Under the pieces are notes generated by a model. That model was not told the DNA's origin. It ran no database searches and worked only from the letters and a program-made list of their open reading frames with translations. A stretch of 64,000 nt of DNA from Patescibacteria group bacterium. Its GTDB lineage: Bacteria > Patescibacteriota > JABMPQ01 > JAHIRA01. The stretch lies in contig JAHISJ010000026.1 of assembly GCA_018818205.1 (NCBI GenBank), positions 29,994 through 93,993 of the forward strand, read 5' to 3'. The translations under genes were made by a program, and so were the position numbers. Numbering within the stretch: position 1 is the first letter of the stretch; each line of letters starts with the position of its first letter. Shown here piece by piece: positions 9,996 to 51,300 of the stretch.

Positions 9996-10085
9996 ATTAT
10001 CTATATTGTGAATGCACATACCAAAAATGGTAGTAATACTATATCCAAATGGAGTCGATTTGTCAATGAAAATAATGCCTCTTCT

Positions 10086-28231: not shown

Positions 28232-28317
28232 GATTTTCTTATTGACATTGCGTGATTTTTGTGATTATAATGAAAAGTCTTAAAGACGTCAATATGGTCT
28301 TTCTTTTAGGAGGAGAG

Positions 28318-28956: not shown

Positions 28957-31413
28957 CTATATGCTAAGCTCAACTTCTTTTATGAGAACTGCATTGTGAG
29001 CGGTATCATATTCATCTTTTGCAACTGCAATTCTTTCATTAAGCTCTCTTAAAGGTTTAGTTTGAGCGTCCATTTTTTGAGATGCAGTCATAAGCTCATC
29101 AAACACCGCATTGTCCAGCTGAACATTATCAATTTTATTATACGTTTCTTCTCTAAGAAGCGGAGAACCATCTTCTGCCTGATAGTTTCTAAGCGCTCCA
29201 ATAACGTCCATTGACCCAGTAGAAAGTGTAGCGAGTCCTCTTCTAAGTGCTTTTCTATTCTTCATTGTTTGAAAATAGCCAAGCGTAAATGCTTTTTTTG
29301 CTGGATCTTTGTACCCCAGTCTACCAAGTAAATTATCAAGCTCGCCTTTCATTCGGGCAACATCAGCAATATTTGATTCTCTTTCCATATTTTCTTTTTC
29401 ACCCAGCAAGCTACTCAACTTCAATTGCTTTTCATTTGCTTGTTGATCAAGTGCACGTAACTCGTCAGGTCGGGCATTTGCCTCTCTTTGTCTTCTTACA
29501 ATCATTTCTGCCTGCTTTAACGCCATTTGTCTATCAAAGCCTGGAAGCTCTTCAGTTGGCTCTTCACCAAAAGTTGCCCCTTCTTCATGAAAGCCTGGAA
29601 GCTCCAACGTTTTCCCTGCTCCAAAAGCTTCTTCCCACATATTGTCATAGCTCAAGCCAGGTGAGGTGTATTGGTCATATACCTGAGAAGCTTGATCTAA
29701 TCCAAACGTTCGCGCAGTGTCATTACTTGGCTGAACTCCTGCAGCTTCGGCAGTTTGTACGTATTGATTTTCTGCAAACTGACGCTGACTTTGTACTTGG
29801 GCTGTAAGCAAAGAATCTGCTATCTCTTGATCAACGCGCTGCAGCTCTCTCAGTCGTGATTCTAAAAGCATTGTAAGTCCTAAAGGGTTTTTTGCGCTTT
29901 GAGATACTACATCTATAAGACTTTGTTCCATGCCACGAACATTGGCAAGAGACTCATTTATTCTTTGAATTCTTTCTTGTGATACTTCCTTTTCACCCCT
30001 TATTTCTTCTGGCGAAAGCCTTACTGCATCCCGTGCAGTAGTTGCGGAAAGCAAAAGACCATCAGCAAAATCAATAGCTTGAGTAAATTCTTCACGTACA
30101 GATTCTGGATATAGCTTTGATATCTCTGTTTGATTAATAAGGAAGAGGTTCATTTCCATTCTCTTTCCAGTAAATCTAAGAGAAAACTTTTGAATTTTTG
30201 CCTCATATTCTTTTTCATCTCTTCGTTTCAATTCATCCCACCCAAGCTGTGCTATTATTTCAGGACTATAATTTGTATCCTTTACACTACCATCATCTAA
30301 ATTATAAATAGTGTTGAGTACTTGATATTCTTCAGCAGACATTGCACGAGTCATTTCAAGAAGCCTCTGATTATTTTGCATCATTGTATATGCTTCGCCC
30401 ATACTTATTGACAAATCATAATACGTATCCCAACTCATCTGCGCAACTGAAGTAAGTCTCCCCTTTTCACCTTCCTGGAGTTGAATCATTCTTTCAAAAC
30501 GAAGATCTCTCTCACCCTTGGGATAGTCCGTTTTTATATCGTGTTTTTCATATGCTTCTGCTACAGCTCTCTTGCCAGAATCCAATAATCCTTTAAAGTC
30601 TCTTTCTGCTTTTTGAGCAAGACGTTTTTGCTCAGATTGCTCTATACCTTTAGGAAAACCAACCATTTCCTCAGTTTGATTTAATACTTCTGGCGTTTTT
30701 TGAGATAATCGAGCCTGATGTTCTTGCAAGAAATTTTGAACACCTGTACTAAGGTTTTGTTCTATAGTGCGAACAGTATCATTTGGTACTTCTTCATTCC
30801 TAAGAGTATCATAAACAGCACCTTCAGCATCTAAAGCAAATCGAAGGGCTTCCATTTTTAGGGTCACTTTTTGATTAAGCTCAGTCTTTGCAAGTTGCTC
30901 CGAAATATTTGATCTTACTGTAGCAAGCTCAGCACTTGTTTGATCAATCACTTGTCTTTGTGCTTCTTCTGGAAGCTCTTCACCTCGTTTTTCTGCTTCA
31001 TTAACTGCACGAGTAACTACTCCAGGAGTATCAAGTACAACATCCTTAACTTCTTCAGGAGAAACTGGGCCTTCTAACATTTCAGCAAGGATTCTATTTC
31101 TCTCTTCCTCATCTACATACCGTTCTTTCACTGGTCTCAAAGCAGCTCGTTTTTCTTCCTCCGTCAAAGCAATTTCTTGCTTCAATACTCTTTTTTGATT
31201 TGCTTGAGACATACTGGAAACTTCTGCAAAAAAATCACGCAGGGGTGTTTCTTCAGACTGTTCTTCTGACCTTGTTCCTTGACTAAAAACTAAATCTGCC
31301 CATTCTTTTGCTTTTTGGCTTAATGCATCCATATTTCCTTCACGCGCTGCTGCTTCAGCTTCTGCATGTTTTGCGTCGGAATAGATATCTCCTGTTGACA
31401 TTTTTCTAGCCAT
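28957..31413 (-). CDS. Large (818 aa) predominantly alpha-helical, E/Q/R-rich hypothetical protein
   Basis: Long intact ORF with heptad-like periodicity and no TM segment. Lies downstream of the VirD4-like ATPase module on the same strand. Confidence 0.5.
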   Translation of the reverse strand: MARKMSTGDIYSDAKHAEAEAAAREGNMDALSQKAKEWADLVFSQGTRSEEQSEETPLRDFFAEVSSMSQANQKRVLKQEIALTEEEKRAALRPVKERYVDEEERNRILAEMLEGPVSPEEVKDVVLDTPGVVTRAVNEAEKRGEELPEEAQRQVIDQTSAELATVRSNISEQLAKTELNQKVTLKMEALRFALDAEGAVYDTLRNEEVPNDTVRTIEQNLSTGVQNFLQEHQARLSQKTPEVLNQTEEMVGFPKGIEQSEQKRLAQKAERDFKGLLDSGKRAVAEAYEKHDIKTDYPKGERDLRFERMIQLQEGEKGRLTSVAQMSWDTYYDLSISMGEAYTMMQNNQRLLEMTRAMSAEEYQVLNTIYNLDDGSVKDTNYSPEIIAQLGWDELKRRDEKEYEAKIQKFSLRFTGKRMEMNLFLINQTEISKLYPESVREEFTQAIDFADGLLLSATTARDAVRLSPEEIRGEKEVSQERIQRINESLANVRGMEQSLIDVVSQSAKNPLGLTMLLESRLRELQRVDQEIADSLLTAQVQSQRQFAENQYVQTAEAAGVQPSNDTARTFGLDQASQVYDQYTSPGLSYDNMWEEAFGAGKTLELPGFHEEGATFGEEPTEELPGFDRQMALKQAEMIVRRQREANARPDELRALDQQANEKQLKLSSLLGEKENMERESNIADVARMKGELDNLLGRLGYKDPAKKAFTLGYFQTMKNRKALRRGLATLSTGSMDVIGALRNYQAEDGSPLLREETYNKIDNVQLDNAVFDELMTASQKMDAQTKPLRELNERIAVAKDEYDTAHNAVLIKEVELSI

Positions 31414-31495
31414 ATTTTTTTATTACTTATATTATTTTTACTAGCTATGAACTATAGCATAAAATTGCCAATCTGTCAATACTTTTCCTTATTCT

Positions 31496-32077
31496 TCATT
31501 GCACGAGACATTTTTTACACTTCTCTATCATTAACTGCTGTGCTTCTTCTTCAAACTTCTGAGCATCGAGAAGTAATTGTGACCCATGCTCAAACGTCTG
31601 TGCACCATCTTCACCTGCCAAAAGGTTGTCAAAACCCTTTACGTACGACTCATATCCCTCTGCTTGAAACGTATACTTTGAAATAAGTTTTTCTTGAATG
31701 CCTACCGATGTACCTTTGGCTGAAATGGTACCCATCTTTTCCTGAGCACGCGACGCCTCTTTGCTAGCCTCATTGAAAAGCTCTTTTCTCTGCCTCCAGA
31801 CTGAACGTCTAGCTTCATTCTCTTCCCCCTGGTCTTTTTCTTGAAGGTTGCCGTCTTTTTCCATTAGGTCAGCAATAGCTAGCCCCTCATGTATATACAC
31901 TTCTTTGTTATACTCTTCAACAAACAAGACAACGTCTCGCGTTTGAAAGTAACCCTCGAGCGCAGGTCCCAGTTGAAACCTGTACATCACTGCCCCAAAA
32001 ACTACAAAAAGAATGACGATACCACTACTGATTATTTTCTGTCTTTTTAGTATACTCTCTTCTTTAGAAGAAATCAT
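31496..32077 (-). CDS. Membrane-anchored hypothetical protein (N-terminal TM, charged helical ectodomain)
   Basis: 193 aa with TM segment IISSGIVILFVVFGAVMY. Its start overlaps the stop of the upstream ATPase gene. Confidence 0.45.
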   Translation of the reverse strand: MISSKEESILKRQKIISSGIVILFVVFGAVMYRFQLGPALEGYFQTRDVVLFVEEYNKEVYIHEGLAIADLMEKDGNLQEKDQGEENEARRSVWRQRKELFNEASKEASRAQEKMGTISAKGTSVGIQEKLISKYTFQAEGYESYVKGFDNLLAGEDGAQTFEHGSQLLLDAQKFEEEAQQLMIEKCKKCLVQ

Positions 32078-33567
32078 TACGTATCGTTATCCTTCTGCAC
32101 TGACTGAAATGCCTTCTTAAACGGTTTATGAGAATCATCGTTAACCTTAGATTGGGAGTGGGATTGATTCTGTCTCGGCTGAGTATCGCTGCGATTTTGA
32201 TACTTTTTTGGTTCTCGTTTTTTTTGATACTCATTGGGTCTTGACCTTGGACTTGACTTTGGGGATTCCATTTCACCCTTTGTCGGTTCCGTACTATCTG
32301 TAAACCCACTAAAGCGAGCAATTTTCCCCTCAATTATTTCTCGTTTTTTTGCATACCGTTCACGAGAGATACGAATAATTTTATCCTGAAATCCATCTGG
32401 CTCCCATGTTGGTGCAATAGACTGAGCACTAAACGCCTGGGACGCCACACCATTTATCATAAGTTTTAAGTACACATTATACTTAGTCAGATTTACGAGA
32501 TGGTTTGCGGTAAACACCGGTTCAAACTCTGTCTCAAACATCTCTGAATCTTGTGCACCAATTCTAAAAACAATCATAGTCCCCACATTGCCAAACACCG
32601 CATCGTACACCGTCTCCGGAAGCTGGTTAATATACTGATGGGCCATAATTAAATTTAATCGATACTTACGCGCTTCAGATAAAATGTCAGCAAAACTGTC
32701 CGTAGCAAAATTTTGGAACTCATCAACGTAGAGATAGAAGTCCACACGCTTTTCCTCCTGAATATCAACACGACTCATTGCCGCAAGTTGTAGTTGCGTA
32801 ATCATCATAGCACCAAAAAGCGCAGAGGCGTCTTCACCGACTTTTCCTTTGGATAGGTTTAAAAGCAAGATCTTCTTTGAATCAATAACATCACGCATAT
32901 TTATGGTCGACTTTGGTTGTCCAACAATGTTTCTGATAAGTGAAATCGACAAAAACTGACCAACCTTATTCTGAATTGGCGCAATTGCCTCTTGCTGAAA
33001 CTTGTCGGGATACCGCGAGTACTCGTCTACCCAAAAAGATTTTACCACTGGGTCAGTAACCTTACTTATAACCTTTTTTCTAAACGACTTGTCCGTAAGC
33101 ATACGCATGATACCAAGAAGCGTACTCCCCGGGTAATCAAGCAAAGCAAGAATGGTATTCCGAAGCACATACTCAAGCCGTGGTCCCCACGAATCTGCCC
33201 AAATCTTTTTAAAAACACCTAAAAGTCCTGATGCAACAAGATGTTTGTATTCAGGATTGACGCTTTCCATCACATTAAACCCAAGAGGATAATTAATATC
33301 CCCGGCATCAAAATATATGACGTCGTTTACTCTATTTGACGGCACATATTGAAGCATCTTGTGAGCAAAGTCGCCATGAGGGTCAACGACGCAAAGACCA
33401 TTGCCTTTCCGTATGTCGCTAATAACCATATTCTCAAGAAAAGTCGTCTTTCCCATTCCGGTTTTTCCAATGACATACATATGACGTCTTCTGTCATCCC
33501 TGCGAATACCAAATTTGGTAAACTTTCCTCTATAATTTGTCTCTCCGAGTATTGTTACATCATCCAT
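32077..33567 (-). CDS. P-loop ATPase of the VirD4/TraG/TrwB (type IV coupling protein) and FtsK-HerA superfamily
   Basis: Walker A VIGKTGMGKTT, Walker B FYLYVDEF, a C-terminal HQYINQL motif and a basic/low-complexity tail. No N-terminal TM helices of its own. Confidence 0.55.
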   Translation of the reverse strand: MDDVTILGETNYRGKFTKFGIRRDDRRRHMYVIGKTGMGKTTFLENMVISDIRKGNGLCVVDPHGDFAHKMLQYVPSNRVNDVIYFDAGDINYPLGFNVMESVNPEYKHLVASGLLGVFKKIWADSWGPRLEYVLRNTILALLDYPGSTLLGIMRMLTDKSFRKKVISKVTDPVVKSFWVDEYSRYPDKFQQEAIAPIQNKVGQFLSISLIRNIVGQPKSTINMRDVIDSKKILLLNLSKGKVGEDASALFGAMMITQLQLAAMSRVDIQEEKRVDFYLYVDEFQNFATDSFADILSEARKYRLNLIMAHQYINQLPETVYDAVFGNVGTMIVFRIGAQDSEMFETEFEPVFTANHLVNLTKYNVYLKLMINGVASQAFSAQSIAPTWEPDGFQDKIIRISRERYAKKREIIEGKIARFSGFTDSTEPTKGEMESPKSSPRSRPNEYQKKREPKKYQNRSDTQPRQNQSHSQSKVNDDSHKPFKKAFQSVQKDNDT

Positions 33568-33597
33568 TGTAGTAGTACATATACACGTTTATTCTTA

Positions 33598-34878
33598 TTA
33601 CATTGGGACAGGCAGATCCGGTGGTGGCTCTGCTTTTCTGGTATCAAGACGCTCAAGTGTTGGCGTCCGCACACTCTCATAGGGGAAGTGATACATTGTA
33701 GCAATTTCCTCGGTACTCATAACATAGGCATTGCCACCCATCCACGGATCCCGCCCTTTAAATCCTTTCATAATTAACCGTTTTCTTCTTGGAACACGCA
33801 TTTTTTTAAAGTAGTCAACCGATGTCCAGTTTTTGGTGTTCGGTTTCAAACCATTGAGATTCTCCGTAGTAAATATGCGCATGAACATAAACATAGGCAT
33901 CATACCTTTTGGCTTATTAAAAACCTCGTTTTTGCCAACATATACAAACCGCATCTTGACAAAAAACGCAATCTTGGAGATACTCTCCTCTATTGCTTTA
34001 ATAACTTCCCGTTCTCCTGGAGAAAGGAAGGACATCTCCATACCCTCTTCATCTTCAATCTCAGAAGGAGGAAACCCAAGTGCATTATCAATATTCTTCT
34101 CTACATTATGCCACCCTCCCAAAACGTACCGAGAAACCCAAGATTCAGACGATTTTGGTGAACGGTTCATAAGTTCATCTACAACCGCTAACGCTTTTTT
34201 TTGCCACTTCTCGTCCCACCGTGGCTGTATGATTATCTGAAACCACAACTGTTCACCGGGATTTAATCCACTCATTGCCTCAGTAAGCGTTGAGACGGGG
34301 TCAATAAAACCCTTTTCAATATCTTCAGCAAACGACTTGTACGTACGGATAGGATAGGGATCTGGACGCACTAGAGCTATTTCTGTTCCATACATATCAT
34401 ACTCCTCATTTGGATACGTGTCAGGCGCAAAAGTTACATAGTCCTCGACAAGCATGATTTCAGCCTCTGGATAATACGCATAAATCATTGCCTCAAGTGA
34501 TTCTCTGTACTTGTTAGGCATGCGCATAAGAAACCGCACCTGGCCATTAATACCTACTATCTCAAGGCTTACACTGAGCTGAAACTCGCCATACCAGTAC
34601 TTTTCATACATATTTGGAGGATGTTCAATAGAGTGAATAGCAGTAATAATTTGCTCCATTGATTTTGGATCCTTGATATTATCAGCAGGAATAGTAATGG
34701 CAATTAAGTCATAGTCAATAGAGAGCGCGAATTTAATCTGCCTTCTAAAAAGAAATAGCTGAAATCCCAAATACAAAAAAAGTGGTATTAAAATAAACCA
34801 CGTATATGAAATTACTAAAGAGATATAACCCCAAAGCTCGATTAAGCCCGGTCCAACTTCTTGAAGCATACTACTCAC
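33598..34878 (-). CDS. Polytopic membrane protein, hypothetical, partner of the VirD4-like ATPase
   Basis: 426 aa with an N-terminal TM pair (WFILIPLFLYLGFQLFLF) and a large soluble domain. Separated by 30 nt from the ATPase gene on the same strand. Confidence 0.5.
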   Translation of the reverse strand: MSSMLQEVGPGLIELWGYISLVISYTWFILIPLFLYLGFQLFLFRRQIKFALSIDYDLIAITIPADNIKDPKSMEQIITAIHSIEHPPNMYEKYWYGEFQLSVSLEIVGINGQVRFLMRMPNKYRESLEAMIYAYYPEAEIMLVEDYVTFAPDTYPNEEYDMYGTEIALVRPDPYPIRTYKSFAEDIEKGFIDPVSTLTEAMSGLNPGEQLWFQIIIQPRWDEKWQKKALAVVDELMNRSPKSSESWVSRYVLGGWHNVEKNIDNALGFPPSEIEDEEGMEMSFLSPGEREVIKAIEESISKIAFFVKMRFVYVGKNEVFNKPKGMMPMFMFMRIFTTENLNGLKPNTKNWTSVDYFKKMRVPRRKRLIMKGFKGRDPWMGGNAYVMSTEEIATMYHFPYESVRTPTLERLDTRKAEPPPDLPVPM

Positions 34879-34934
34879 TTAAATTTGATCTCTGTTTTAC
34901 GGCCCCTAACTATTCAGTGCACCCTATAATAGTC

Positions 34935-36020
34935 TTATGACTTTGTAACGTATACAAAACCATCACCTTGTTTCTGAATTGCATCTCTACTTTGTAATGC
35001 TAACACGATTGTATTTTTCTTTACAAGACGTTGTTTGCGTACTTTTTCAACAATTTCTTCTTTGGTAAGTGGTCCATCAGCATTTTTTAGAACATCTAAG
35101 ACAACATCAGCTACAGTACCGGTCTGATATCCCCATGACGTCAACGCATAAATGCCACGCCCTACAAGAACAAATCTACCATCTTTGATAAGCTCATTGT
35201 GGACAGTCTGTGCGATAGCTTCTTTTTTACTAAAGCCAGCTTCGTTAATTTTCTTTGTAATCTCTGTAAAGTGAAGAGGCTTTCCTTCTTTTTTGAGGAT
35301 AATATATGCCTTATCTTTTACTCCACGAGGAATAATCTCACTCCAATGTGCAAGACCCCATTCATCAAATGGATTACGCTTAATACGTTTACCAATAAGT
35401 AAATATGACTTCACTCGCTCAGAGTCACGCTTCTCATCAGTTATTTCTTCCGCTTTTGGATGATTTACCACATGCTCGACAGCGAGACCATGGTTAACAG
35501 GCTCATTTTTTTCTTCAAGAATTTCAATAAAAGACTGGATTACCTTTTCCGGAACACGCAAGTCAGCGTCTTTAATGTACCAGTGTTTATTGTATTCGTC
35601 GGTCTCTTTATTATCAAAAAATCGATCACTAATATGCAGTACAAACTCAACATGATTATCATGTACGTCACCAGGAAGTTCTTCTTTTGATTTTTCTACC
35701 AAGTACTGATGTTCCATGATATGACCGTAGTCTGCAATAATGTGCTCAATAATATCTTCCGTTGGAATAAGATCCTCCATTTTTTCTGAGGATTTTAATT
35801 CCTTTAATGCCGCAGATTCTATTTGTCTTACACGCTCACGAGTAATCTCGTACGCTTTACCTATTTCTTCAAGTGTCATCTTGCGTGATCTATCAAGCCC
35901 GTATCGTTTAAGAACAATGTCTCTTGTTCGCTCAGGGAGATCAGTAATGAACGCACGAATAACAGCCTCAAGATCTTTTGAGACAGTGTCTGCTGCGTAT
36001 TGTTCAGCTGCGTTCACCAT
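34935..36020 (-). CDS. Sigma-70 region-4 (HTH) domain protein with a long C-terminal extension
   Basis: The N-terminus DLPERTRDIVLKRYGLDRSRKMTLEEIGKAYEITRERVRQIESAALKELK is a classic sigma-70 region 4.2 HTH. Regions 2 and 3 are not recognisable. Confidence 0.55.
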   Translation of the reverse strand: MVNAAEQYAADTVSKDLEAVIRAFITDLPERTRDIVLKRYGLDRSRKMTLEEIGKAYEITRERVRQIESAALKELKSSEKMEDLIPTEDIIEHIIADYGHIMEHQYLVEKSKEELPGDVHDNHVEFVLHISDRFFDNKETDEYNKHWYIKDADLRVPEKVIQSFIEILEEKNEPVNHGLAVEHVVNHPKAEEITDEKRDSERVKSYLLIGKRIKRNPFDEWGLAHWSEIIPRGVKDKAYIILKKEGKPLHFTEITKKINEAGFSKKEAIAQTVHNELIKDGRFVLVGRGIYALTSWGYQTGTVADVVLDVLKNADGPLTKEEIVEKVRKQRLVKKNTIVLALQSRDAIQKQGDGFVYVTKS

Positions 36021-36184
36021 ACTAGTAGGATTAAAATACTAACGTAACTATTTTATAAAATTAATTTCTAACAACCATATCACCAATAATGTATCATGTT
36101 TTACAACAATTGTCAACCCTTAACAACACAGTCTACACTACTATTCAAATTATGTCAAGGACCTTTACAAAAAAGAGTGTACTG

Positions 36185-36221
36185 CGAAAGCAAAACACTC
36201 ACTTTTTATCTATTTTAAGCC
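36185..36221 (-). terminator. Intrinsic terminator after the 95-aa gene
   Basis: Minus strand reads GAGTGTTTTGCTTTCGCAGTACACTCTTTTTTG. Confidence 0.55.
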
Positions 36222-36509
36222 CTAAATAAAGGATTGAATCCTCTGAGCTTCTTCTTGAACAACAGCACTTTCTTCATCTTCATAACACCTAACTCCCTTT
36301 TTATGCATTGGACGTCTGGCATCAAAATGGAGATCTAAAATGACACTGTAATCTGATCCGTACTTTAAAAGTACATGAAAACGAGGATAAAAAGATGCTC
36401 CCGTTCTTCTGATATAGCTCTCGCCACCTGTCGTGGGGTTGCGCCACGGTTTATATCCTGCTTTTCGCATGACGTTCCGGGGATTTGTTTGTCCTATAGA
36501 TATTTTCAT
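36222..36509 (-). CDS. Hypothetical basic protein (95 aa); weak RelE/ParE-like resemblance
   Basis: The FYPRFHVLLKYGSDYSVILDLHFDARR segment loosely resembles the RelE-fold C-terminus. No antitoxin-like partner is evident. Confidence 0.3.
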   Translation of the reverse strand: MKISIGQTNPRNVMRKAGYKPWRNPTTGGESYIRRTGASFYPRFHVLLKYGSDYSVILDLHFDARRPMHKKGVRCYEDEESAVVQEEAQRIQSFI

Positions 36510-36551
36510 AGTAATACTCTTGATAACTGATCATTGAAAAATTGAAATTCC

Positions 36552-36857
36552 TTACCTAAGCTCTTCTTTGACTTTCTCCTTCAACGTATCATCAATCTCA
36601 TCCGGAAGCATATCGCCTTCGGGATTATGTTCTGTGGCTTCCTCGTACACCTTATACTTAGCGTCAGTCACTGCGCCTCTTAATGATTCTTTTTCTTCCG
36701 CAGTAAGATCTTGCCTGAGCTTAAGCACATAGTAATCTTTAAAGGTTTTATACGTAACGACACCAACATCTTTCTTTACAGTATATGCTGCATAACCAAT
36801 AACGCCCCCGATAGTGAGCAAAACAATGAGTATAAATCCTGCGATAAATCGAATCAT
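36552..36857 (-). CDS. Small single-TM membrane protein, hypothetical
   Basis: N-terminal TM FIAGFILIVLLTIGGVIGYAAY and an acidic tail. Overlaps the MiaB-like gene stop by 4 nt. Confidence 0.4.
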   Translation of the reverse strand: MIRFIAGFILIVLLTIGGVIGYAAYTVKKDVGVVTYKTFKDYYVLKLRQDLTAEEKESLRGAVTDAKYKVYEEATEHNPEGDMLPDEIDDTLKEKVKEELR

Positions 36858-38068
36858 TCTGGTTTGATTATATTCTTACCTTCTAGTGTAAATTGTTTTA
36901 TGGTATTTCGCAAATCTCGTTTTGACGGCATATAGACACGCACATAGTTTTCTGTATAGCCCTCAAAATAGCCATTTCTTTGGTCCTCAAAAAGCACTGA
37001 TACGGTGGTCCCTATACACTCTTTTTTAAATTGATGCTCACTCTCGCTAGCATAATCTCGCAGAATATGTGCTCTCTTTTGTTTTACCTCCTCTAAAACC
37101 TGATCTTTCATTGTTGCAGCAGGCGTCCCCTCCCTGGCTGAAAAGGGGAATACATGCACACTAGAAAACCGTGCCGCGTCAATAATTGAGAGACTTTCCA
37201 TAAAATCACGATCCGTCTCACCGGGAAACCCTACAATAATATCCGTTGTTACCCCAAATAGAGGATCAATCTTGCGTATTTTTTTTACCAGTGATACATA
37301 TTCTTCTCTAGTATAGCACCTATTCATTTTGGCTAAAATATCACTTGAGCCGCTCTGCAAAGAAAGATGCCAGTGGTTTAACAGTCTTTTACTCTCCCAA
37401 AGGGCAATAAAATCATCGTCAATAAATCTTGGATCAAGGGAGCCAAGCCGAATACGCTTGATACTTGTATTAGCAAGAACATACTCAAGTAGCTGAGTAA
37501 GATTTAAACTCTCTTTGTAAGAATATTTATTGATGTTCACTCCGGTAAGCACTACCTCTTTAAACCCTTCCTTCTGTCTTTTTTTAATTTCTGAAACAAT
37601 CTTTGTTGGCGAAACACTGTTTAATGGACCTCGTCTACGTGAAATAATGCAATACGTGCAAAACATATCACATCCCTCCTGAATTTTGATGAGTGCTCTG
37701 TCTTTTTCAGAAACGAAAACAGTGGGTGTTTGAGGCGAATCATCTTGATTGTCTTTTTTTAGGAAAGAAAGTACGTCGTGAACAAGTGTATCTTTATTGC
37801 TTAAAAAAAGATCAACATCCTTCTTTTGCTCAATGGAACACCCCGTTGCGACAATAACCGTATTTGAATTACTATTTCTTATTTTATTGATCATCTGACG
37901 TGTTTTCCTCACTGCCTGATGTGTCACTGCACATGAGTTTACTACACACACGTCAGGACTCTCTTTAAATGGCACAACGTTAAAGCCGCGACTTTGGAAC
38001 TCGCGTGAAAAGGTATCGCTTTCTGCTTGATTGAGCTTACAACCAAGGGTGAGGATTGAGATTTTCAT
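36854..38068 (-). CDS. Radical-SAM methylthiotransferase, MiaB/MtaB/RimO family
   Basis: MTTase N-terminal domain (ILTLGCKLNQAESD...VVNSCAVT) and the radical SAM CxxxCxxC motif (EGCDMFCTYCII). Confidence 0.8.
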   Translation of the reverse strand: MKISILTLGCKLNQAESDTFSREFQSRGFNVVPFKESPDVCVVNSCAVTHQAVRKTRQMINKIRNSNSNTVIVATGCSIEQKKDVDLFLSNKDTLVHDVLSFLKKDNQDDSPQTPTVFVSEKDRALIKIQEGCDMFCTYCIISRRRGPLNSVSPTKIVSEIKKRQKEGFKEVVLTGVNINKYSYKESLNLTQLLEYVLANTSIKRIRLGSLDPRFIDDDFIALWESKRLLNHWHLSLQSGSSDILAKMNRCYTREEYVSLVKKIRKIDPLFGVTTDIIVGFPGETDRDFMESLSIIDAARFSSVHVFPFSAREGTPAATMKDQVLEEVKQKRAHILRDYASESEHQFKKECIGTTVSVLFEDQRNGYFEGYTENYVRVYMPSKRDLRNTIKQFTLEGKNIIKPE

Positions 38069-38155
38069 AGTGATTATTCTAAATCAACTGTTATAATATG
38101 CAAGAGAGAAAAACTATATTCAAACAAGAGAATTACCTTAAATCTACAAAATTTC

Positions 38156-39445
38156 ATGCAACCTTCAAAAACAGCGTTCATTATAGGCTCAGGATTTTCT
38201 AAAGATCTTTGTGGACTACCTACCTTAACTGGCGAAAATAGCTTAAGTTCATTAGTTATTGAAAAACTTCAAGAACATGAAAACGAATCAGTCAAACTAT
38301 TCATTAATAGTATCTCAAGCGAAATAAAGGATAACATTGAACACTTAATGAGCTATCTTATCCAGGATAATCCATGGTCAAATGAAACAGAAAAGCACTT
38401 AGCAAAAGCCTCGTATCATGTAATTACGGATTTAATACATAAAGTACTTGATGAAAATGATCAGGAACTGAAAACTGAAGAAGAATACATTCAACAACTT
38501 TTTTCATTTTGGCACAAATATGAAACTGACGTCATTAGTTTTAATTATGATACTTTAATTGAAAAATATACTCAAAAATTCTTAAAAGTGAAAAAGGTAG
38601 AAACCCCTGAAAATAAAAGAAATGCAATAAAAACAGTACTCATAATAGCTGACGAGCATAATAAATTAGCACAAGAAAAAGAAATACATATCTATAAAAA
38701 AAACAACATACGTTATATTTACTTAAAAAATAGAAGTATAGTAACTGATGGATTGCTCTCTCAAATTCATAGTAAACTTTACGGAGAAACTGCTCCAGAA
38801 AAGTCTAGTTATATAAACCCTTTGATAAATAAGTTGAAAGAAAAAGTAACTCTCAAAGATATTTATCAGATTCCTATACCTAATGTTAATGAAAGAGTAG
38901 GAGGTCTGTGGCTAAATAGCAGTAGAAATAACTCATTAAAACTTCTAAAACTGCATGGATCAACAAACTGGCTTTATTCAGGTGACGAAAATCTTACTGG
39001 TGAAGATATTCGTCATATTCCTCTTGATCGAAAATCAAGCAAAATAAGCCTCTCTGGTCTTGTTAGGTATATTATTCCTCCAGTCTTAGATAAAAGTCCT
39101 TTTTATAAAAACAATTCTTTAAAAACCCAATGGACTAAAGCAAGAGAAGCGCTCGAAACTGCCAATGATATTATTATTATTGGATATTCTTTCCCAGAAA
39201 CAGATCTCTCAACAAGATTCATGATCCAGCAAGCACTTAAAGAAAATAAAAAAGCAACTATACATCTAGTATCTAGACCACAAAAAGTAGTAGAAGGTGG
39301 AAAAGAAAAGAAACAAACAGAAGAAGAAATACGTGAAGAATCTGCAGAAAACTTGAAGGAGTTTTTAAAACATAACCTTATAAAAGTTTATGTTCCTGAA
39401 AAAAGTTCAATAGTTGAAACTTGTAAATTGCTTAAGAAAAAATAA
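38156..39445 (+). CDS. SIR2-like (SIR2_2/DHS-like NAD-binding) family protein, candidate defense-type NADase
   Basis: N-terminal glycine-rich loop AFIIGSGFSKDLCGLPT; a central HG motif (LKLHGSTNWLY); and a C-terminal IIIIGYSFPETD motif. These are the three hallmark blocks of the SIR2_2 family. About 30% GC, clearly below its neighbours. Lies next to tRNA-Lys. Confidence 0.5.
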   Translation: MQPSKTAFIIGSGFSKDLCGLPTLTGENSLSSLVIEKLQEHENESVKLFINSISSEIKDNIEHLMSYLIQDNPWSNETEKHLAKASYHVITDLIHKVLDENDQELKTEEEYIQQLFSFWHKYETDVISFNYDTLIEKYTQKFLKVKKVETPENKRNAIKTVLIIADEHNKLAQEKEIHIYKKNNIRYIYLKNRSIVTDGLLSQIHSKLYGETAPEKSSYINPLINKLKEKVTLKDIYQIPIPNVNERVGGLWLNSSRNNSLKLLKLHGSTNWLYSGDENLTGEDIRHIPLDRKSSKISLSGLVRYIIPPVLDKSPFYKNNSLKTQWTKAREALETANDIIIIGYSFPETDLSTRFMIQQALKENKKATIHLVSRPQKVVEGGKEKKQTEEEIREESAENLKEFLKHNLIKVYVPEKSSIVETCKLLKKK

Positions 39446-39447
39446 CA

Positions 39448-39478
39448 AACAAAAAAAACGGACATCATCCGTATTCTT
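39448..39478. terminator. Bidirectional terminator between the SIR2-like gene and tRNA-Lys
   Basis: AAAAAAAACGGACATCATCCGTATTCTTT. Confidence 0.55.
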
Positions 39479-39480
39479 TG

Positions 39481-39556
39481 TGGTGGGCGTTAAAGGATTC
39501 GAACCTTTGACCTTCTCCTTAAAAGGGAGCTGCTCTACCAACTGAGCTAAACGCCC
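39481..39556 (-). tRNA. tRNA-Lys (anticodon UUU), CCA encoded
   Basis: Minus strand reads GGGCGTTTAGCTCAGTTGGTAGAGCAGCTCCCTTTTAAGGAGAAGGTCAAAGGTTCGAATCCTTTAACGCCCACCA. It has a 7-bp acceptor stem, D arm GCTC/GAGC, anticodon loop CTTTTAA and a T arm with TTCGAAT. Confidence 0.85.
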
Positions 39557-39659
39557 AAAATCTTTAATACAAAAAGTGTACCAAATACGAATCGTCAAAT
39601 CAAGTCTTTACGTAAAAATAGCCCAGCTTTGGGCTATTTAAAAGTACGATCATTCCCTA

Positions 39660-40184
39660 TTAAACTTCCCGTGGCTCACTATACTTTACCAAATACATTG
39701 CACCAATAGGCGCAACTAGCCACGCAAAATGTCCAATCTCTGACGTAAATACCACGCGTGTCATTGATGACAAGTTCTCAACAACAGTTGTGGGCATAAA
39801 AGAAAGGACAATACTAATAAACAGACCAACATGTAAGATACTAAAGAGCACCACAATAGGTAAGCTTGTTTTTGCACTTAAGGTAGTAAAAAGTCCCATA
39901 CGAGAAAACAAAAAGAAAAGAGCAACAATAAACACGAGCAACACCAGTGTTCTCATAACAAACACCGGTCCAAGATTGAACTTTTGTGACATTTTCTCAT
40001 TAATAAACGGCAAGTTGCTCGAGACAGCAAACGCAATATAGATACTGACCAAAATAACGAGGATTCGTTCTCTACCGAGTGAAAGACCATACACAAATAC
40101 TGAGATCACAAAAAACAAACCAATGAAAAGGTCCCACGTAGGAACACCCCAATTTAACCCTGTAAGTACTCCGGACGGATCCAT
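39660..40184 (-). CDS. Integral membrane protein (4-5 TM), hypothetical; possibly CvpA-like
   Basis: 174-aa hydrophobic ORF followed by a hairpin and T-run terminator at about 39605-39635. Confidence 0.45.
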   Translation of the reverse strand: MDPSGVLTGLNWGVPTWDLFIGLFFVISVFVYGLSLGRERILVILVSIYIAFAVSSNLPFINEKMSQKFNLGPVFVMRTLVLLVFIVALFFLFSRMGLFTTLSAKTSLPIVVLFSILHVGLFISIVLSFMPTTVVENLSSMTRVVFTSEIGHFAWLVAPIGAMYLVKYSEPREV

Positions 40185-40435
40185 GAATGTACTCCTTCGT
40201 TTTTTATTTTTCTAAAAAACCTATCTACATAAAACAGCATAGCACAGTAAGGAAGAAAAAGAAATCCACACTTAGGATTTCAACAAGCATGTCATTCCGG
40301 ACAGTCATTCTTATGGCTGAGCCGGAATCTCGTTTTTTCTCTTGTAAGCTACGAGATCCCGGATAATCATTCAGAAATGATTTCCGGGATGACAGAGAAG
40401 ACGTTTTTCAAAGTAGAGAAATCAACAAGTCTAAA

Positions 40436-41557
40436 TTATGAAAACAGTTTAGACCAGAAGCTTTTTTCTTTTACAACACTTGTCTCGCCTTCTTCTTTTT
40501 GGAGAGCTTTAACAAGTTCTTTCTCTTTTTTGGTCAGCTTTCTTGGTGTTACTACATTGACGTGAACTCTGAGATCTCCTACTCGACCGGTACTGGGATT
40601 TTGAAAGCCTTTATCCGAGAGTCTATGAATATACCCTGATTGTGTTCCCGGTTCAATAGCAACTTCTAGTGTTTCATCAAAATAAGTAAGCTCTACCGCA
40701 CTCCCAAGCGCTGCCTGTGTAAAACTAATAGGTAAGAGTGCTACCAAATCATCACCATCTCTATCAAGTTTTTTATGCTTTTGTACATGAACCGTTGCAT
40801 AGAGATTGCCCGGTGAGCCACCACTTCTACCAGCTTCACCTTTGCCTGGAATCTCGATTGTTTGGCCATCTGCAATACCTTTTGGTACCGCAATAGAAAC
40901 ATCAACATCTGCATTTACTCTTCCATCTCCACCACACGTAGTACAGGGAGTTTTTGGCTTTTTACCTTCGCCTTTACAAGATGGACATGTTTTTGATTGG
41001 GCAAACGCCCCTAACACTGTCTGCATCTGTTGGGTAACCTTGCCTGCACCGTTACACGTACTACAGGTCTCAATGGGAGTCCCCGGCTCAGCGCCGTTCC
41101 CGTGACAGTTTTCACATGACGTTCGTTTATATAAACTGACATCTCGCTTTACACCAAAATATGATTCTTTAAACGAGATAGTAAGATCGACTTTAATATC
41201 ACTCCCTTGAACCGCACCACTTTGACTTCTCCGTCTCCCTCCACCAAAAAAGTCATCAAAGATGCTACTGAAATCAAAACCCTCGAAGTTTGCATTAAAC
41301 CCTTGTGCTCCACCAAAACCAGCACCACCTCCGGGCGCGCCTGCTTGATCAAACGTTTGGCCATATTGATCATACTGCTGCCGTTTTTGGTTATCAGAAA
41401 GAACCTGATACGCTGAGTTTATCTCTTTAAATTTTTCCTCGTCTCCATCTTTTTTGTCAGGATGATATTTGTGGGCGAGTTTTCTATACGCCTTTTTTAT
41501 CTCATCGTCTGACGCGTCTTTGGAGACGCCGAGGGTGTTGTAGTGGTCGTTTGGCAT
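40436..41557 (-). CDS. dnaJ: Chaperone DnaJ
   Basis: J domain with HPD ([14 protein letters not shown]), G/F-rich linker, and four CxxCxGxG zinc-finger repeats. Confidence 0.9.
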
Positions 41558-41663
41558 GGAATAATGTTAGGGGAAAATGGGGGTTGTGTAAAGACGGGTT
41601 TCAAGCCCGTCTTCAAAACCAGTCAGGGCGCCCACAAGGGGCGCCCCTACATACCGCCAAAAG

Positions 41664-44139
<2,476 letters not shown>

Positions 44140-44144
44140 TGAGC

Positions 44145-44888
44145 TTAAATTAATGTAAACGAGATAAGAAGAACGAGCGACCCTCCACTGAGCAGTTTAG
44201 AAAGATAACTCACCAAAGAAATGTTTTTATCGTAACGCATTCTCTTTGGTCCAAGCACCGCAATCACACCATGTTCACCATTTGGCAATTCAAACTCTGA
44301 AATCAGCAGGGAACATTTGTTCATCTCTGAAACGGGGTTTTCTGAACCAATGAATGTCTGTACCTGCCGCTCCTTTGGCTTATGGTCAAGTAAAACATCT
44401 ACCGTATCTTCAAATTGATCAAGTGCCTCACACACAGACGCAACTTCCCTTTTATCCTCAAACTCAGGCTGATCCAAGAGCTTTTGAAGCCCTGACGTTG
44501 CGTACTCTTCTTGCTCTTTGATTCCTGACACCACCATGCTTTGTGAGTGCAAAGATAGAAGCTTTGCCGTAACACGCGCAAGCCGCTTGTATTGAGCCTG
44601 CAATTTTAAGAGATCTGACTGAAGTTTAACTTGATCTTCTTTGGAAAGCGATTTGCCTTCCATAAGTAAGTTCACATAATACCGATATCCTTTGTCAGTT
44701 GGCACACGCCCCGCCGAAGTGTGAGGCTGGTAAATATACCCTTCCTTCTCTAACGCTGACATCTCATTTCTCACCGTTGCCGGCGAACAATCGAGTTTTT
44801 CAGCAAGCATCTTAGACCCTACTGGTAACGCAGTTTTTACGTAATATTCGATAATATAATGTAAAATTGTTTCTTGCCGAGTGGTCAT
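44145..44888 (-). CDS. hrcA: Heat-inducible transcription repressor HrcA
   Basis: MTTRQETILHYIIEYYVKTALPVGSKMLAEKLDCSPATVRNEMSALEKEGYI.. wHTH N-terminus. Start placed at the Met downstream of the CIRCE element. Confidence 0.85.
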   Translation of the reverse strand: MTTRQETILHYIIEYYVKTALPVGSKMLAEKLDCSPATVRNEMSALEKEGYIYQPHTSAGRVPTDKGYRYYVNLLMEGKSLSKEDQVKLQSDLLKLQAQYKRLARVTAKLLSLHSQSMVVSGIKEQEEYATSGLQKLLDQPEFEDKREVASVCEALDQFEDTVDVLLDHKPKERQVQTFIGSENPVSEMNKCSLLISEFELPNGEHGVIAVLGPKRMRYDKNISLVSYLSKLLSGGSLVLLISFTLI

Positions 44889-44897
44889 ATTAGTGAC

Positions 44898-44924
44898 TTG
44901 GCACTCCTCTACCGAGAGTGCTAA
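44898..44924 (-). promoter_or_regulatory. CIRCE operator (HrcA binding site) in the hrcA promoter
   Basis: Plus strand TTGGCACTC-CTCTACCGA-GAGTGCTAA; minus strand TTAGCACTC-N9-GAGTGCCAA. Matches the CIRCE consensus TTAGCACTC-N9-GAGTGCTAA with one mismatch. Confidence 0.8.
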
Positions 44925-44971
44925 TTTCATAGTAGCGTGTTCTGCTTATTTGTCAAGTGTGGATGAAATAA

Positions 44972-48353: not shown

Positions 48354-51300
48354 CTATCCCTTCTTAAGCCCAATATCTTCCTTGACTAGCCCCTTCTCAC
48401 CCCCATGAATAGGAACCTTACCCTCAGGAAAGCTAAACCCTTCACGTTTTGGAATAAGCACATAATCGTCATCTCCCACCAAAAAGCCATATCGTCCATC
48501 TGAGTTGGTAACTCTGGCCATGAGAATCCTCCCAAACCGTGGCTCAAAGAGTCTAACTATTACTTTAGAAAGAGTGTAGTTGGTATCAGTATCATAGGTA
48601 TGTCCCCAAGGCTTTGCAATCTTACGAGCGGCAAGCCGTCTAAAGAGAAAGAATAATAGAATGTGAACTACAAATAGGACTGCGGTAAACCACGACGGTG
48701 CAAGCACCAATGCAATAAGCCCCAGAAGTGGACCAAGGAATGAAAACACAAAAGAGATCTTGCGAGCCCTGTCTGCACGTACCATGCGCTTGTCCTCAAT
48801 CGCGATCTCTTCCTTTGAAAGTGTCTGCATGTCCTGCATGGTCGTGACACTCGTTTTAATTGGTTTTCTATACTTATCATCCAAAAATGCCATACCCTGC
48901 GCCGGATCTATTGGTACATCAAAAGCAATGATTCCATCCGTGGTAGACTTTTCATTAACATCAAAACTAAAGATCTCTCCGTTATATACCCGCTTACCCC
49001 CATGCACCGATTTACTGTTAGTGTGAGAAGGAAACGTAAACCCATCCCTAGTTACGGTCATGTAGTAGGCTTTCCCCTTTTCAGCCAAAAAGTAATATCG
49101 TCCCTTTGCATCCGTGACTGATGACTCGAGTAACTTCCCGGTTTCTTTGTCAAAAAGCCTCACAATAGCTAGATCAAGAGGTTCATCTGTCAGCGAATTA
49201 TAAACTGATCCCCACTTTCTCCTGCCTTTGACCGCAAAGAACCTAAATGGCTCGCTAAAGAGTTGTGCAAGGTATTTTAAATACGGAAAAAGTGTCTGAG
49301 CGACTGACACGGATGCAAGAATATTGGTCAATGCGACAAGAGCGGTAAGCGGCACCAATCCTGCATCAACAGCTCTCTTCACTGACTCATTTTGCCAGAC
49401 CGGTTCAAAAAATGCCGCAACAAATCCTTTTTCTTCTACTTGCGGCTCGTCAATGAGTATCTCCTCTTTTTTGTCCTCTACTATTACCTCTTTCTTATCA
49501 TCCTTTTTGTCCTCAACAATGATCTCTGTTTTATCTTCAATAATCACGTCATCCTTTTTGTCCTCTACCGTATCCTCAATAACTTCAATGATCTCAACTG
49601 GTGGCTCCTCAATCGGGGTGATTGGTGTCACTTGAGGAACTTTAGGACCACCAAGAATACCTCTTACAACCGGAGGAACAACACGACTAATAATCCTAGT
49701 TTTTGCCGCATACCCAAATTTCGCTCCATTATATGCGATAAGACTCGTCTTTAAAACGACCTGCCCGGGGTTCCTTTTGGTTGTTGGTTCATAGTTAGAA
49801 AGCGCCTGTGACCCTTCATCAACCGAGACCATATAAAATCCTGCAGACATACCGTACACATCAAACGTTCCTATTCTGCCGGTAGCTCCCGTAAACGCAA
49901 GCGTATCACCAACATCTATTTTGCCATCATGGTTGTTGTCATTATATACACGGACAGTTACACCAGAGATACCTCCCTCGCCTTGATTTTGAACACCATT
50001 TTTATTGATGTCATTAAATACAAGGCCGGAGATACTCCCTTGTGCCCGTACTGTATTTTGAATCGTATTAGAACGTGCACCTAGTCTCCCAGGATTATAC
50101 GCACCTGCTGCACGACTATCTATTACATCCCCATCAAACGCTGTGTTACTCACTAACACCTTAAAGCTGAATGTTCCCTTCTCACCCACCTTAAGCGACC
50201 CAATATCAAAATAGACATTATTTTTCATAGTAACGCTATAGTCACCTTGATCAACGTCCTTTCTGTCACTAATAGCTCGCCCGTTATACATAAGTGAACC
50301 GGAAATATACGAGGTATGCCCCGGAATGCTGTCAGAAATGTAGAACCCAAACGCATCGCCTGAACCGATATTCTCATACGCAACTTCATACAAGAGTTCA
50401 TCTCCTGGTTTTACATCACCATTGCCAAATGTGCCTGAGGTTGCGGTCATGGTTTTTGTAAGAGTAACAACCGGTCCCGTCGATAAAATAGCGTAGAGCT
50501 CAGTGTGCACTGTCTCCTGATTTCCCGCCCTATCTATAGAGAAATATTTGAGTGTCGCTCCTCGACTAATTGTAAAGGGGGCATTATAACGCAATGAATG
50601 TACCGTTGGTGTTGAATTGTCAAGTGTATAATACGTGGCATCACACCCAGAGCCACCGGGATCTTGGCAGATAAGCGTAACGGATACGGGATTTTGGTAG
50701 TTGCCGCCTGCAGGAGAAACGGTTGTAGTTGGAGGAGTTTTATCTTGATTAACCAACACAAAAACAGGAGATGATACAAACGCGCCATTTGTCCCGGAAA
50801 AACCGCGTATGCGCACCTGTGTATTTGGTGCATTAATAAACGGTTCATTAAGCACAGAATCCCATATTGTTGTCACCGCGTTTTTGCCCGATGCGGTAGT
50901 AACATAGCCAGATGAGTTCCCTATTTGGTTTGTATTGTTGTTGTCTACTTTAGGATCACCGGTTGTTGCCGAGGTGTTTGCATCAACAGTGCTGATTGTC
51001 GCTTTACCAAAAGCACCGCCAACTGAATACTCAACGTACGCCTCTGTGTCTGCTGCGTTGTCTTCTGTTTCAACATCAAAGCTAATATCAACGTAGCCGC
51101 TACCACCCTGCCGCTCGCTTGCAGTGAGATTTGAAATAGTTGGTGCTAAACTCGGATACACTAGCGCGCTTGTTCCTACAAATCTAGAAATACTAAAAAG
51201 GGTAACACTTTTGTAAGTAATGGCATCGAGCACGCCTGAATTATCCGATGCACTTGCATCGTTAAACACATCATTAAAGCCGTTAGTATTTTGCTGGGCA

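Follow-up and report, generated by a model that had tools for sequence, protein, structure and literature searches.

A standalone SIR2-like gene inserted at a tRNA-Lys/mtaB junction of a Patescibacteria genome encodes a candidate NAD-destroying anti-phage protein

It was in a 64,000-nucleotide (nt) stretch of a Patescibacteria group bacterium genome (NCBI GenBank assembly GCA_018818205.1, contig JAHISJ010000026.1, positions 29,994 to 93,993 of the forward strand; called here "the window" and numbered from its first letter) that a sequence-only reading had pointed to a SIR2-like gene beside a tRNA-Lys gene, proposing it as a single-gene anti-phage islet that destroys nicotinamide adenine dinucleotide (NAD+). 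This gene, of the SIR2_2 or SIRim type, is the subject of the present analysis. The open reading frame (ORF) occupies 38156..39445 on the plus strand and encodes 429 amino acids (aa), the whole protein being one SIR2 domain with an insertion; the earlier reading had extended it to 39556, an end that takes in the tRNA. On its left, a divergent spacer of 87 nt separates the SIR2 ATG from the start codon of mtaB (36854..38068, minus strand), the core gene of this flank, which encodes a radical-SAM tRNA methylthiotransferase with Pfam Radical_SAM and UPF0004 matches, is named MtaB by NCBI, and is syntenic in relatives. On its right, only 35 nt lie between the SIR2 stop codon and the 3' end of tRNA-Lys(UUU) (39481..39556, minus strand; detected by ARAGORN, 74.9 bits with Rfam), which faces the ORF and marks the right boundary of the insertion, so that the gene does abut the 3' side of the tRNA as had been noticed. 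Further right follows the core gene of the other flank, encoding a 174-aa membrane protein (39660..40184, minus strand) that is syntenic in two of the relatives described below (L091 and L093), and then dnaJ-dnaK-grpE-hrcA. In general, the surroundings of the SIR2 gene are housekeeping in nature, with MnmA, AlaRS, RNase P RNA, the dnaK operon, a Mur ligase, a PBP, and MraW.

The guanine-plus-cytosine (GC) content of the SIR2 ORF is 30.3%, and 20.0% at third codon positions (GC3), against a mean of 40.6% (standard deviation 2.5) for the other 43 ORFs, that is, z = -4.1 for GC and z = -3.4 for GC3, in agreement with the estimate of about 30% GC, below the flanking genes, made in the sequence-only reading. 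The 1,290-nt windows of lowest GC in the 64 kb fall over this ORF, and none is below the 30.3% of the ORF itself. Within 28957-44930 it is also the sole plus-strand gene, with eight minus-strand genes on its left and the tRNA and five genes on its right; its description as the only plus-strand gene in a minus-strand run therefore holds for this interval, just outside which a possible plus-strand ORF is found at 28252-28920. Upstream of the SIR2 ATG, at a distance of 58 nt, we read by eye a candidate extended -10 motif, TGtTATAAT (38089..38097, plus strand), which may act as the promoter; a two-hexamer promoter scan did not report it, and this upstream region has neither a recognisable -35 element nor a clear Shine-Dalgarno sequence. 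Between the SIR2 ORF and the tRNA there is a GC-rich hairpin, ACGGACATCATCCGT (39458..39472), with a terminator-like score on both strands and a strong, long T-tract on the tRNA (minus) strand only, and to this extent the "bidirectional terminator" described before is correct in its score and one-sided in its T-tract. The hairpin is the terminator of tRNA-Lys, and it probably also stops the convergent SIR2 transcript.

The site that lacks the gene was located by means of a protein search with MtaB followed by contig look-ups. The closest relatives of MtaB are 51–55% identical to it, and their contigs share the gene order of the window. In two Patescibacteria contigs (L091 and L092; GCA_018818905.1), the order is hrcA-grpE-dnaK-(IS200-type Y1 transposase)-dnaJ-177-aa membrane protein-tRNA-Lys-hairpin-99 nt-mtaB-101 aa-96 aa-sigma70_r4/HARE-HTH-DUF8128-DUF87 ATPase, and the window has the same order but with 1,412 nt from tRNA-Lys to mtaB. 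When the window is aligned with L091 at the DNA level, the hairpin after the tRNA is found in both, tRNA-Lys (39481-39556 in the window, 6826-6901 in L091) is identical at 73/76 nt, and a 1.3-kb gap opens in L091, the extra DNA of the window being the SIR2 ORF plus a short promoter region. Given that an equivalent hairpin is present at this empty site, the hairpin is the tRNA's own terminator and was not brought by the insertion. The SIR2 gene, absent from syntenic relatives, is thus no core gene but an insertion at the tRNA-Lys/mtaB junction that consists of one gene of foreign composition, and the inserted single-gene islet of the earlier reading is borne out by the empty site and by the GC deviation. 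Judging from these sequence comparisons, in which the relatives are distant, it was probably acquired horizontally.

The same junction carries other genes in other relatives. In L093 and L094, a different ORF of about 227 aa lies between tRNA-Lys and mtaB, with a 274-aa gene and a NUDIX gene on the other side of the tRNA, and in L090, an unrelated 264-aa gene precedes mtaB; the 227-aa and 274-aa ORFs of L093 and the 264-aa ORF of L090 have no Pfam match. With the site empty in L091/L092 and occupied by another ORF in L093/L094, the tRNA-Lys/mtaB junction varies within this lineage, the SIR2 gene being one of the alternative cargoes that it carries; both sides of the tRNA are variable, as L093 (2437-4902), and likewise L094, carries cargo on both. 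A search of the genome contig collection with MtaB for further synteny returned Firmicutes MtaB only, at 31–44% identity, and did not recover the genome of the window itself. A classical tRNA-integrated island was also considered and is ruled out, since the neighbouring genes include no integrase and the tRNA 3' end is not repeated: the direct repeat that had been suggested was not found anywhere in the window, where a search with the last 16–25 nt of the tRNA, allowing up to 3 mismatches, together with repeat finding, gave no second copy beyond the tRNA itself. As for the tRNA copies themselves, the window and L091 differ at 3 positions, two of which form a compensatory T-stem pair (aaagg/ccttt vs. 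agagg/cctct), and CCA is encoded in both. The Y1 transposase gene (IS200/IS605-type) between dnaK and dnaJ, at 4238-4798 of L091 and 4249-4797 of L092, is absent from the window.

The stretch 38156..39445 is, by its homology, a real gene rather than a chance ORF, because its homologues reach E 1.6e-62 and NCBI lists an identical protein, annotated as hypothetical, from a Patescibacteria group bacterium. Among the 5.8 billion proteins searched, the closest homologue after it is 36% identical, whereas MtaB reaches 51–55% identity with its counterparts in the syntenic relatives, a contrast that speaks for an accessory gene. Pfam SIR2_2 (PF13289) is matched over aa 253-386 at 26.5 bits against a gathering score of 24.5 (E 7.5e-6), and eight PADLOC models named "SIR2" are matched, the best at E 2.2e-14; this name is the PADLOC output label for the SIR2 component of the GAO_19 (SIR2+HerA) system (PMC11514479). 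Besides SIR2_2, the Pfam scan of the protein returned only TNFAIP8, below threshold (17.3 bits vs. a cut-off of 22.5), and no SLOG, Macro, or TIR domain; there is no APAZ domain either, and a search of NCBIfam gave no matches. An AlphaFold2 model built with a 60-homologue alignment is confident throughout, with a predicted local distance difference test score (pLDDT) of 89.5, a predicted template modelling score (pTM) of 0.90, and no segment below pLDDT 50. In Foldseek against the PDB, the best matches of this model are the SIR2 chains of the Paenibacillus SIR2/HerA complex 8wld (E 1.8e-7, template modelling (TM) scores 0.47/0.57), followed by KomC (8zsf, E 2.4e-4), Bacillus cereus ThsA (8bto, E 3.4e-4), and a canonical sirtuin (3jwp, E 5e-3), so that the immune SIR2 structures rank ahead of the canonical sirtuins. 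The viral fold library BFVD returned canonical sirtuins only, and weakly. At the sequence level, a single-sequence search of the PDB gave no meaningful match and a family profile was needed, with which Paenibacillus SIR2 (8w9l) was found at E 2.3e-10, followed by FAM118B (0.019) and the E. coli Sir2 of SIR2-HerA (0.1). The protein contains only two cysteines, C19 and C423, and hence no sirtuin zinc module. The SIR2_2 identity proposed from the letters alone is therefore upheld by Pfam, by PADLOC SIR2 models down to E 2e-14, and by a confident SIR2 fold, and neither a failure of the SIR2_2 profile nor a place in the conserved core genome, the two findings that would have spoken against the proposal, was encountered.

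The alignment of 60 homologues also locates the putative active site. Invariant among its members are G11, G13, F14, and S15; N130, Y131, and D132; H267, G268, and S269; P308, P309, and K313; and G343, S345, P347, and D350, and the window protein keeps all 21 invariant residues of the family. In the AlphaFold2 secondary structure, the first element is strand β1 (aa 6-10), with no helix before it, followed by the glycine loop FIIGSGFS (aa 8-15, 38177..38200, plus strand, as are all the features of the protein given here), an NAD-binding Rossmann motif. The N130-Y131-D132 block (38543..38551), with the predicted catalytic Asn and Asp, aligns with TTNYD of 8w9l, and the H267-G268-S269 block (38954..38962; the H267 codon is nt 38954-38956), with the predicted catalytic His, aligns with KLHGS of 8w9l. 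By profile alignment, N130, D132, and H267 correspond to N163, D165, and H212 of Paenibacillus SIR2, which are the putative catalytic residues of that protein (PMC11472057). The segment IIIIGYSFPETD (aa 339-350, 39170..39205) forms a conserved C-terminal Rossmann strand and loop inside the Pfam SIR2_2 match. The three blocks that the sequence-only reading had named, FIIGSGFS, LHGS (aa 266-269), and IIIIGYSFPETD, are hence all present in the 429-aa ORF on invariant columns, while the fourth invariant and catalytically important block, N130-Y131-D132, had been missed. From the profile and fold matches, the alignment of the catalytic residues, and the lack of a zinc module, the protein is assigned as an immune-type ("SIRim") SIR2 as defined by Bonhomme et al., and its active site appears intact.

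Two further parts of the protein deserve attention. A helical small domain (aa 30-121, 38243..38518), defined by helices of the AlphaFold2 model and aligned to residues 32-180 of 8w9l, sits where the autoinhibitory lid of Paenibacillus SIR2 sits. The second is an insertion of about 95 aa (aa 143-235, 38582..38860), modelled as four strands and two helices with pLDDT 72–90, directly after the NYD block. The family alignment contains two size classes, of about 335 aa and about 410–435 aa; the window protein belongs to the longer class, and the insertion is confined to that class. It falls in the same inter-motif segment as the oligomerisation insertion of Paenibacillus SIR2 (PaSIR2), where the α8-β3 insertion, between the catalytic Asn and His, mediates higher-order assembly (PMC11472057), and we regard it as a candidate sensing or oligomerisation surface.

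Given that the closest characterised relatives work with HerA, a HerA-type partner was looked for, both in the window and across the family. Beside the SIR2 ORF, whose neighbours are mtaB and tRNA-Lys, there is no SLOG, TIR, STAND, or HerA partner gene. Contig look-ups and scans of viral and metagenome collections provided 48 non-redundant family loci (46 full-length profile matches plus two truncated by contig ends) in which the SIR2 protein matches the family profile over its length. Among the 223 genes within ±3 positions at these loci, the largest cluster of homologous neighbours spans 4 loci and includes the integrase of one of them (L008), with smaller clusters of N6-methyltransferases (3 loci), ABC-type ATPases (3 loci), and HsdR (2 loci); HerA/DUF87 falls outside the 25 neighbour families that occur most often. 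No gene accompanies this SIR2 family, which is standalone here and in its relatives, just as the earlier reading had described this copy as lacking a SLOG, TIR, or STAND partner. The only HerA-like candidate of the window is a 496-aa DUF87/TrwB/TraG-type ATPase (32077-33567, minus strand) with partial matches to PADLOC HerA models and a better one to mad8 (E 2e-15); it was ruled out as a partner, for it lies 4.6 kb and six genes away on the opposite strand and stays beside DUF8128 in relatives without the SIR2 gene, and its position next to DUF8128, kept in all relatives examined, makes it core synteny. The DUF8128-like protein (426 aa) and the DUF87 ATPase form a pair (32077-34878, minus strand) at the same position relative to mtaB in L090, L091, and L093–L095, which may be a conserved Patescibacteria DNA-translocation or secretion module. 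With regard to the protein itself, the N-terminal α1 helix of PaSIR2 docks between the β-barrels of HerA (PMC11472057) and precedes the glycine loop at residue ~32 of that protein. Position 7 of the family profile aligns with residue 32 of 8w9l, and according to the AlphaFold2 model and this alignment, the HerA-docking helix is absent from the 429-aa protein.

The family is large, its profile matching 1,160 clusters at 50% identity with E ≤ 1e-30 and 7,643 with E ≤ 1e-10 among 1.84 billion representatives; of the 150 best clusters listed, the majority are 320–480 aa long. The "minimal or novel variant" proposed earlier is accordingly right in so far as this is a short standalone form, and it is not unique, with more than 1,000 such clusters and a different one-protein "sole-Sir2" already reported. 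The contexts of relatives are typical of defence and mobile cargo. A 347-aa member (P0098), found on 18 contigs, lies inside a type I restriction-modification (R-M) operon, hsdR-hsdM-SIR2-hsdS, with overlapping reading frames and followed by an AAA_15/AAA_21 ATPase. Other members adjoin a Mrr_cat-helicase with a SLFN_AlbA_2 protein, an NTase/HEPN pair, two integrases together with a SLFN-g3 helicase, or a DNA methylase and a Gp49/HTH pair; OLD-like ATPases and toxin-antitoxin genes are likewise near some members. In a viral contig (L102, 2052-7492; IMGVR_UViG_2791355313_000001), a 376-aa member with SIR2_2 at 27.4 bits sits between the large terminase (terL) and portal genes, with an S24-peptidase repressor-like gene and a DUF4760 gene next to it, and looks like phage-borne cargo. 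Among 150 immediate neighbours, the commonest Pfam families are AAA_21 (5), N6_Mtase (4), SMC_N (4), ABC_tran (3), Eco57I (3), Phage_integrase (3), and HTH_3 (3), N6_Mtase adjoining the SIR2 member at 3/48 loci, and the commonest PADLOC models are mad3 and AriA (5 each), MTase_I, mad2, mad8, GajA, AbiLi, and ATPase-Toprim_I-B (4 each), and Specificity_I (3). These counts are raw, made with a crude ORF caller and no genome background, and for this reason the contexts are taken as qualitative support only.

The R-M-embedded arrangement can be seen at 1211-9837 of L098 (also in L099 and L100) and recalls the prrC locus. PrrC is an anticodon nuclease, not a SIR2 protein, embedded in type I R-M loci; the family member P0098 is placed similarly, and the window gene itself has no R-M neighbour. 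Apart from the family proper, more distant SIR2_2 proteins (77–150 bits to the family profile; L103, L104, L173, L180, and L152) have an abutting or overlapping co-oriented upstream ORF of about 420–470 aa and may represent a separate two-gene SIR2 system; the upstream ORFs of L152, L173, and L180 do not cluster mutually, L103 and L104 being outside the set analysed.

Among known systems, SIR2-HerA (Nezha or GAO_19; Paenibacillus sp. 453MF 8W9L/8WLD, E. coli 8J4U/8SU9) provides the closest relative by profile and fold in its SIR2 subunit, which shares the glycine-loop, NYD, and HGS motifs, the helical small domain, the lack of a zinc module, and an insertion between NYD and HGS. In contrast, its identity to the window protein is about 15%, the long class carries the extra ~95-aa insertion, no HerA is adjacent here or at the 48 family loci, and the docking α1 is missing; a SIR2-HerA system is thus ruled out, as there is neither a docking helix nor an adjacent co-oriented HerA (DUF87-type, ~570 aa or more). 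Thoeris ThsA (SIR2-SLOG or SIR2-Macro) and Kongming KomC are likewise of the SIRim type, being NADase effectors autoinhibited until activated, but the window protein has no SLOG or Macro ligand-binding domain, there is no ThsB/TIR or KomA/KomB nearby, and the match is weaker than to HerA-type SIR2; ThsA in particular is ruled out by the single SIR2 domain plus insertion of the model and by the lack of a TIR gene among the neighbours. DSR1 and DSR2 are also single-gene SIR2 systems, NADase defences that sense phage proteins directly. These are ruled out, as they measure about 1,000 aa and carry a large C-terminal sensor behind their N-terminal SIR2, whereas in the 429-aa protein SIR2 reaches the C-terminus and the only extra is the ~95-aa insertion. 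As a short, one-protein SIR2 defence, there is the functional precedent of sole-Sir2 of the CRISPR-supervised immune system (CRISIS), about 440 aa, which hydrolyses NAD+ in vitro and a homologue of which protects E. coli from T2 and T4 (10.1101/2024.12.27.630466). Like the window protein, it is one small protein with a Sir2-like domain and no partner; by its description, on which alone this comparison is made, it consists of a C-terminal, DSR2-like Sir2 domain with a distinct N-terminal substructure, whereas here SIR2 spans the whole protein from residue 6 and the closest relatives are HerA-type SIR2s; the 50 best Foldseek matches listed include no DSR2 chain. Vertebrate FAM118A/B (SIRal) are similarly short and SIRim-type, without a fused sensor, and their activity depends on self-assembly (PMC12700824); they differ in being eukaryotic, closer to ThsA, and filament-forming via vertebrate-specific surfaces, with a weak profile match (E 0.019) and a fold match that is not significant (E 0.11). 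On sequence grounds, the protein appears to be part of a family of considerable size that has no name yet, lacks partners, and is sister to the HerA-type SIR2s.

Most likely, the 429-aa protein is a partner-less SIRim protein that would act against phage by destroying NAD+. The bacterial SIRim proteins so far characterised are NAD+ glycohydrolases whose activation depletes NAD+ and aborts infection (PMC12700824; 10.1101/2024.09.18.613514), and Bonhomme et al. found bacterial SIRim proteins 12-fold enriched near defence systems and argue that most of them are immune (10.1101/2024.09.18.613514). In PaSIR2, the small domain blocks the NAD+ pocket and its deletion activates the enzyme, ThsA being autoinhibited in a similar way (PMC11472057). 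By analogy with these proteins, we infer NADase chemistry, autoinhibition, a trigger, oligomerisation, and phage protection for the window protein, and propose the following working mode. The protein would be expressed from its own extended -10 promoter, and in the resting state, its helical small domain would probably occlude the NAD+ pocket, as in the closest solved relative. Upon phage infection, since there is no partner gene, a trigger would act directly on the SIR2 protein, the ~95-aa insertion and/or self-assembly serving as the switch; the pocket would then open, N130, D132, and H267 would hydrolyse NAD+ to ADP-ribose and nicotinamide, and with NAD+ exhausted, the cell and the replication of the phage would both come to a halt. 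We give a probability of about 0.6 to this reading, namely, an autoinhibited single-chain NADase causing abortive infection and activated by a phage cue acting on the protein itself. More tentative, and in our opinion rather doubtful as a whole, is the broader idea that a large group of SIRim NADases, as yet without a name, works in a self-contained manner, that it is sister to the SIR2 subunit of SIR2-HerA but freed of HerA, and that the window protein is its first recognised member. Sensing and activation would then be built into the enzyme, by way of self-assembly and/or the variable segment inserted between its catalytic Asn and His, and some lineages may use it as a PrrC-like guard in type I R-M operons.

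Several observations weigh against a self-activating anti-phage NADase. PaSIR2, the closest characterised relative, shows no NADase activity unless HerA is present (PMC11472057), so a partner-less form needs another activation route, and the same fact favours an orphan effector, that is, a SIR2 protein inert alone and dependent on the product of another locus, either a partner or a generator of the signal, for which HerA, a TIR/ThsB-like protein, Kongming-like KomA/B, or the nearby DUF87 ATPase could be considered. The best relatives by sequence, fold, and PADLOC are indeed SIR2 subunits of two-gene SIR2-HerA systems, the next fold matches, KomC and ThsA, are signal-activated effectors, and an ATPase with partial HerA-model matches lies only 4.6 kb off. 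Nevertheless, such an arrangement is an unlikely account, although one of some weight, because no partner recurs at the 48 loci, where HerA/DUF87 stays outside the 25 commonest neighbour families, the docking α1 helix is gone and β1 begins at residue 6, there is no SLOG, Macro, or APAZ domain, and the ATPase in question is on the other strand, six genes off, and kept beside DUF8128 where the SIR2 gene is missing. The surroundings of the gene also count against the proposed NADase: the window holds no other recognisable defence gene, and 20 other ORFs compared with PADLOC gave nothing or weak and partial matches, the best being that of the DUF87 ATPase to mad8 (E 2e-15), which are read as generic ATPase, HTH, or methyltransferase matches. 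The defence-island argument consequently holds for the homologues and not for the window locus, and even some homologues are found among housekeeping genes, as at one locus between PGM and ABC-F, near IS110, on top of the raw nature of the neighbour counts.

The identity evidence has its own weak points, as the Pfam SIR2_2 match is marginal and covers aa 253-386 only, the structural matches have low TM-scores (0.47/0.57) at 14–15% identity, the protein has no PHROG match, and the exact gene is known from one sequence on one contig. One could think of a non-immune enzyme (CobB- or SirTM-like), AT-rich by chance, with a housekeeping or regulatory role as an NAD-dependent deacylase or ADP-ribosyltransferase, given that the SIR2 superfamily includes both activities, that canonical sirtuins are among the weaker fold matches (3jwp, E 5e-3), and that no defence genes surround the ORF and metabolic genes (PGM and ABC-F, for instance) flank some homologues. 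We consider this quite improbable in view of the missing zinc-binding module, the nearer relation to immune SIR2s than to sirtuins by sequence and fold, the absence of the gene from syntenic relatives, its sporadic distribution with the nearest homologue at 36% identity, and the recurrence of homologues in R-M, toxin-antitoxin, integrase, and phage contexts. It is also conceivable that the gene is a decaying or silent remnant, acquired with a larger element of which the rest was lost together with the function, as the lack of an integrase, an att repeat, and neighbouring cargo, the single known copy, and the lack of a clear -35 element or Shine-Dalgarno sequence would allow. The full-length ORF, colinear with its homologues from start to stop, the 21 invariant residues, the model without any segment below pLDDT 50, and the extended -10 motif and terminator all speak for a functional gene instead; moreover, Patescibacteria genomes are streamlined, and dead genes are unlikely to stay intact in them, all of which makes a remnant very improbable.

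SIR2-type depletion of NAD+ is among the commonest effector strategies in prokaryotic immunity, and to our knowledge, every well-understood SIR2 case pairs the domain with a sensor or partner, whether HerA, SLOG, Argonaute, STAND, or a large C-terminal domain. The existence of more than 1,000 clusters of partner-less SIR2 proteins of 330–430 aa raises two questions, namely, what keeps a SIR2 domain without partners in check and by what means infection activates it, for which the insertion of the long class and the R-M-embedded members provide two testable entry points. The defence repertoires of Patescibacteria, or candidate phyla radiation (CPR), are poorly charted, and a one-gene, 1.3-kb immune module would be affordable for very small genomes; if the proposed function is true, its presence in a Patescibacteria episymbiont would extend NAD+-depletion immunity to bacteria with ultra-small genomes. 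If the protein were instead inactive or non-immune, this would show that possession of a SIRim domain is by itself a limited predictor of defence function. For specialists the surprise would be limited, since an immune role for the majority of bacterial SIRim proteins has already been put forward by Bonhomme et al.

Some other features of the window were observed along with the SIR2 gene. The bacterial RNase P RNA, class A, lies at 9572-10009 on the minus strand (182.8 bits). A 361-aa protein (34935-36020, minus strand) combines Sigma70 region 4 with HARE-HTH, is syntenic in relatives, and has a partial match to PADLOC MzaA over its HTH region only. The dnaK ORF as called (41664-43775, minus strand) starts at a TTG and overlaps grpE by 140 nt, its true start being probably an ATG about 60 codons downstream. 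Finally, two large surface proteins are predicted on the minus strand, one of 1,307 aa (48354-52277) with CHB_HEX_C_1, Fn3_assoc, and SdrD_B domains, and the other of 1,024 aa (60748-63822) with beta-helix/NosD repeats; very large surface proteins of this kind are typical of episymbiotic Patescibacteria.

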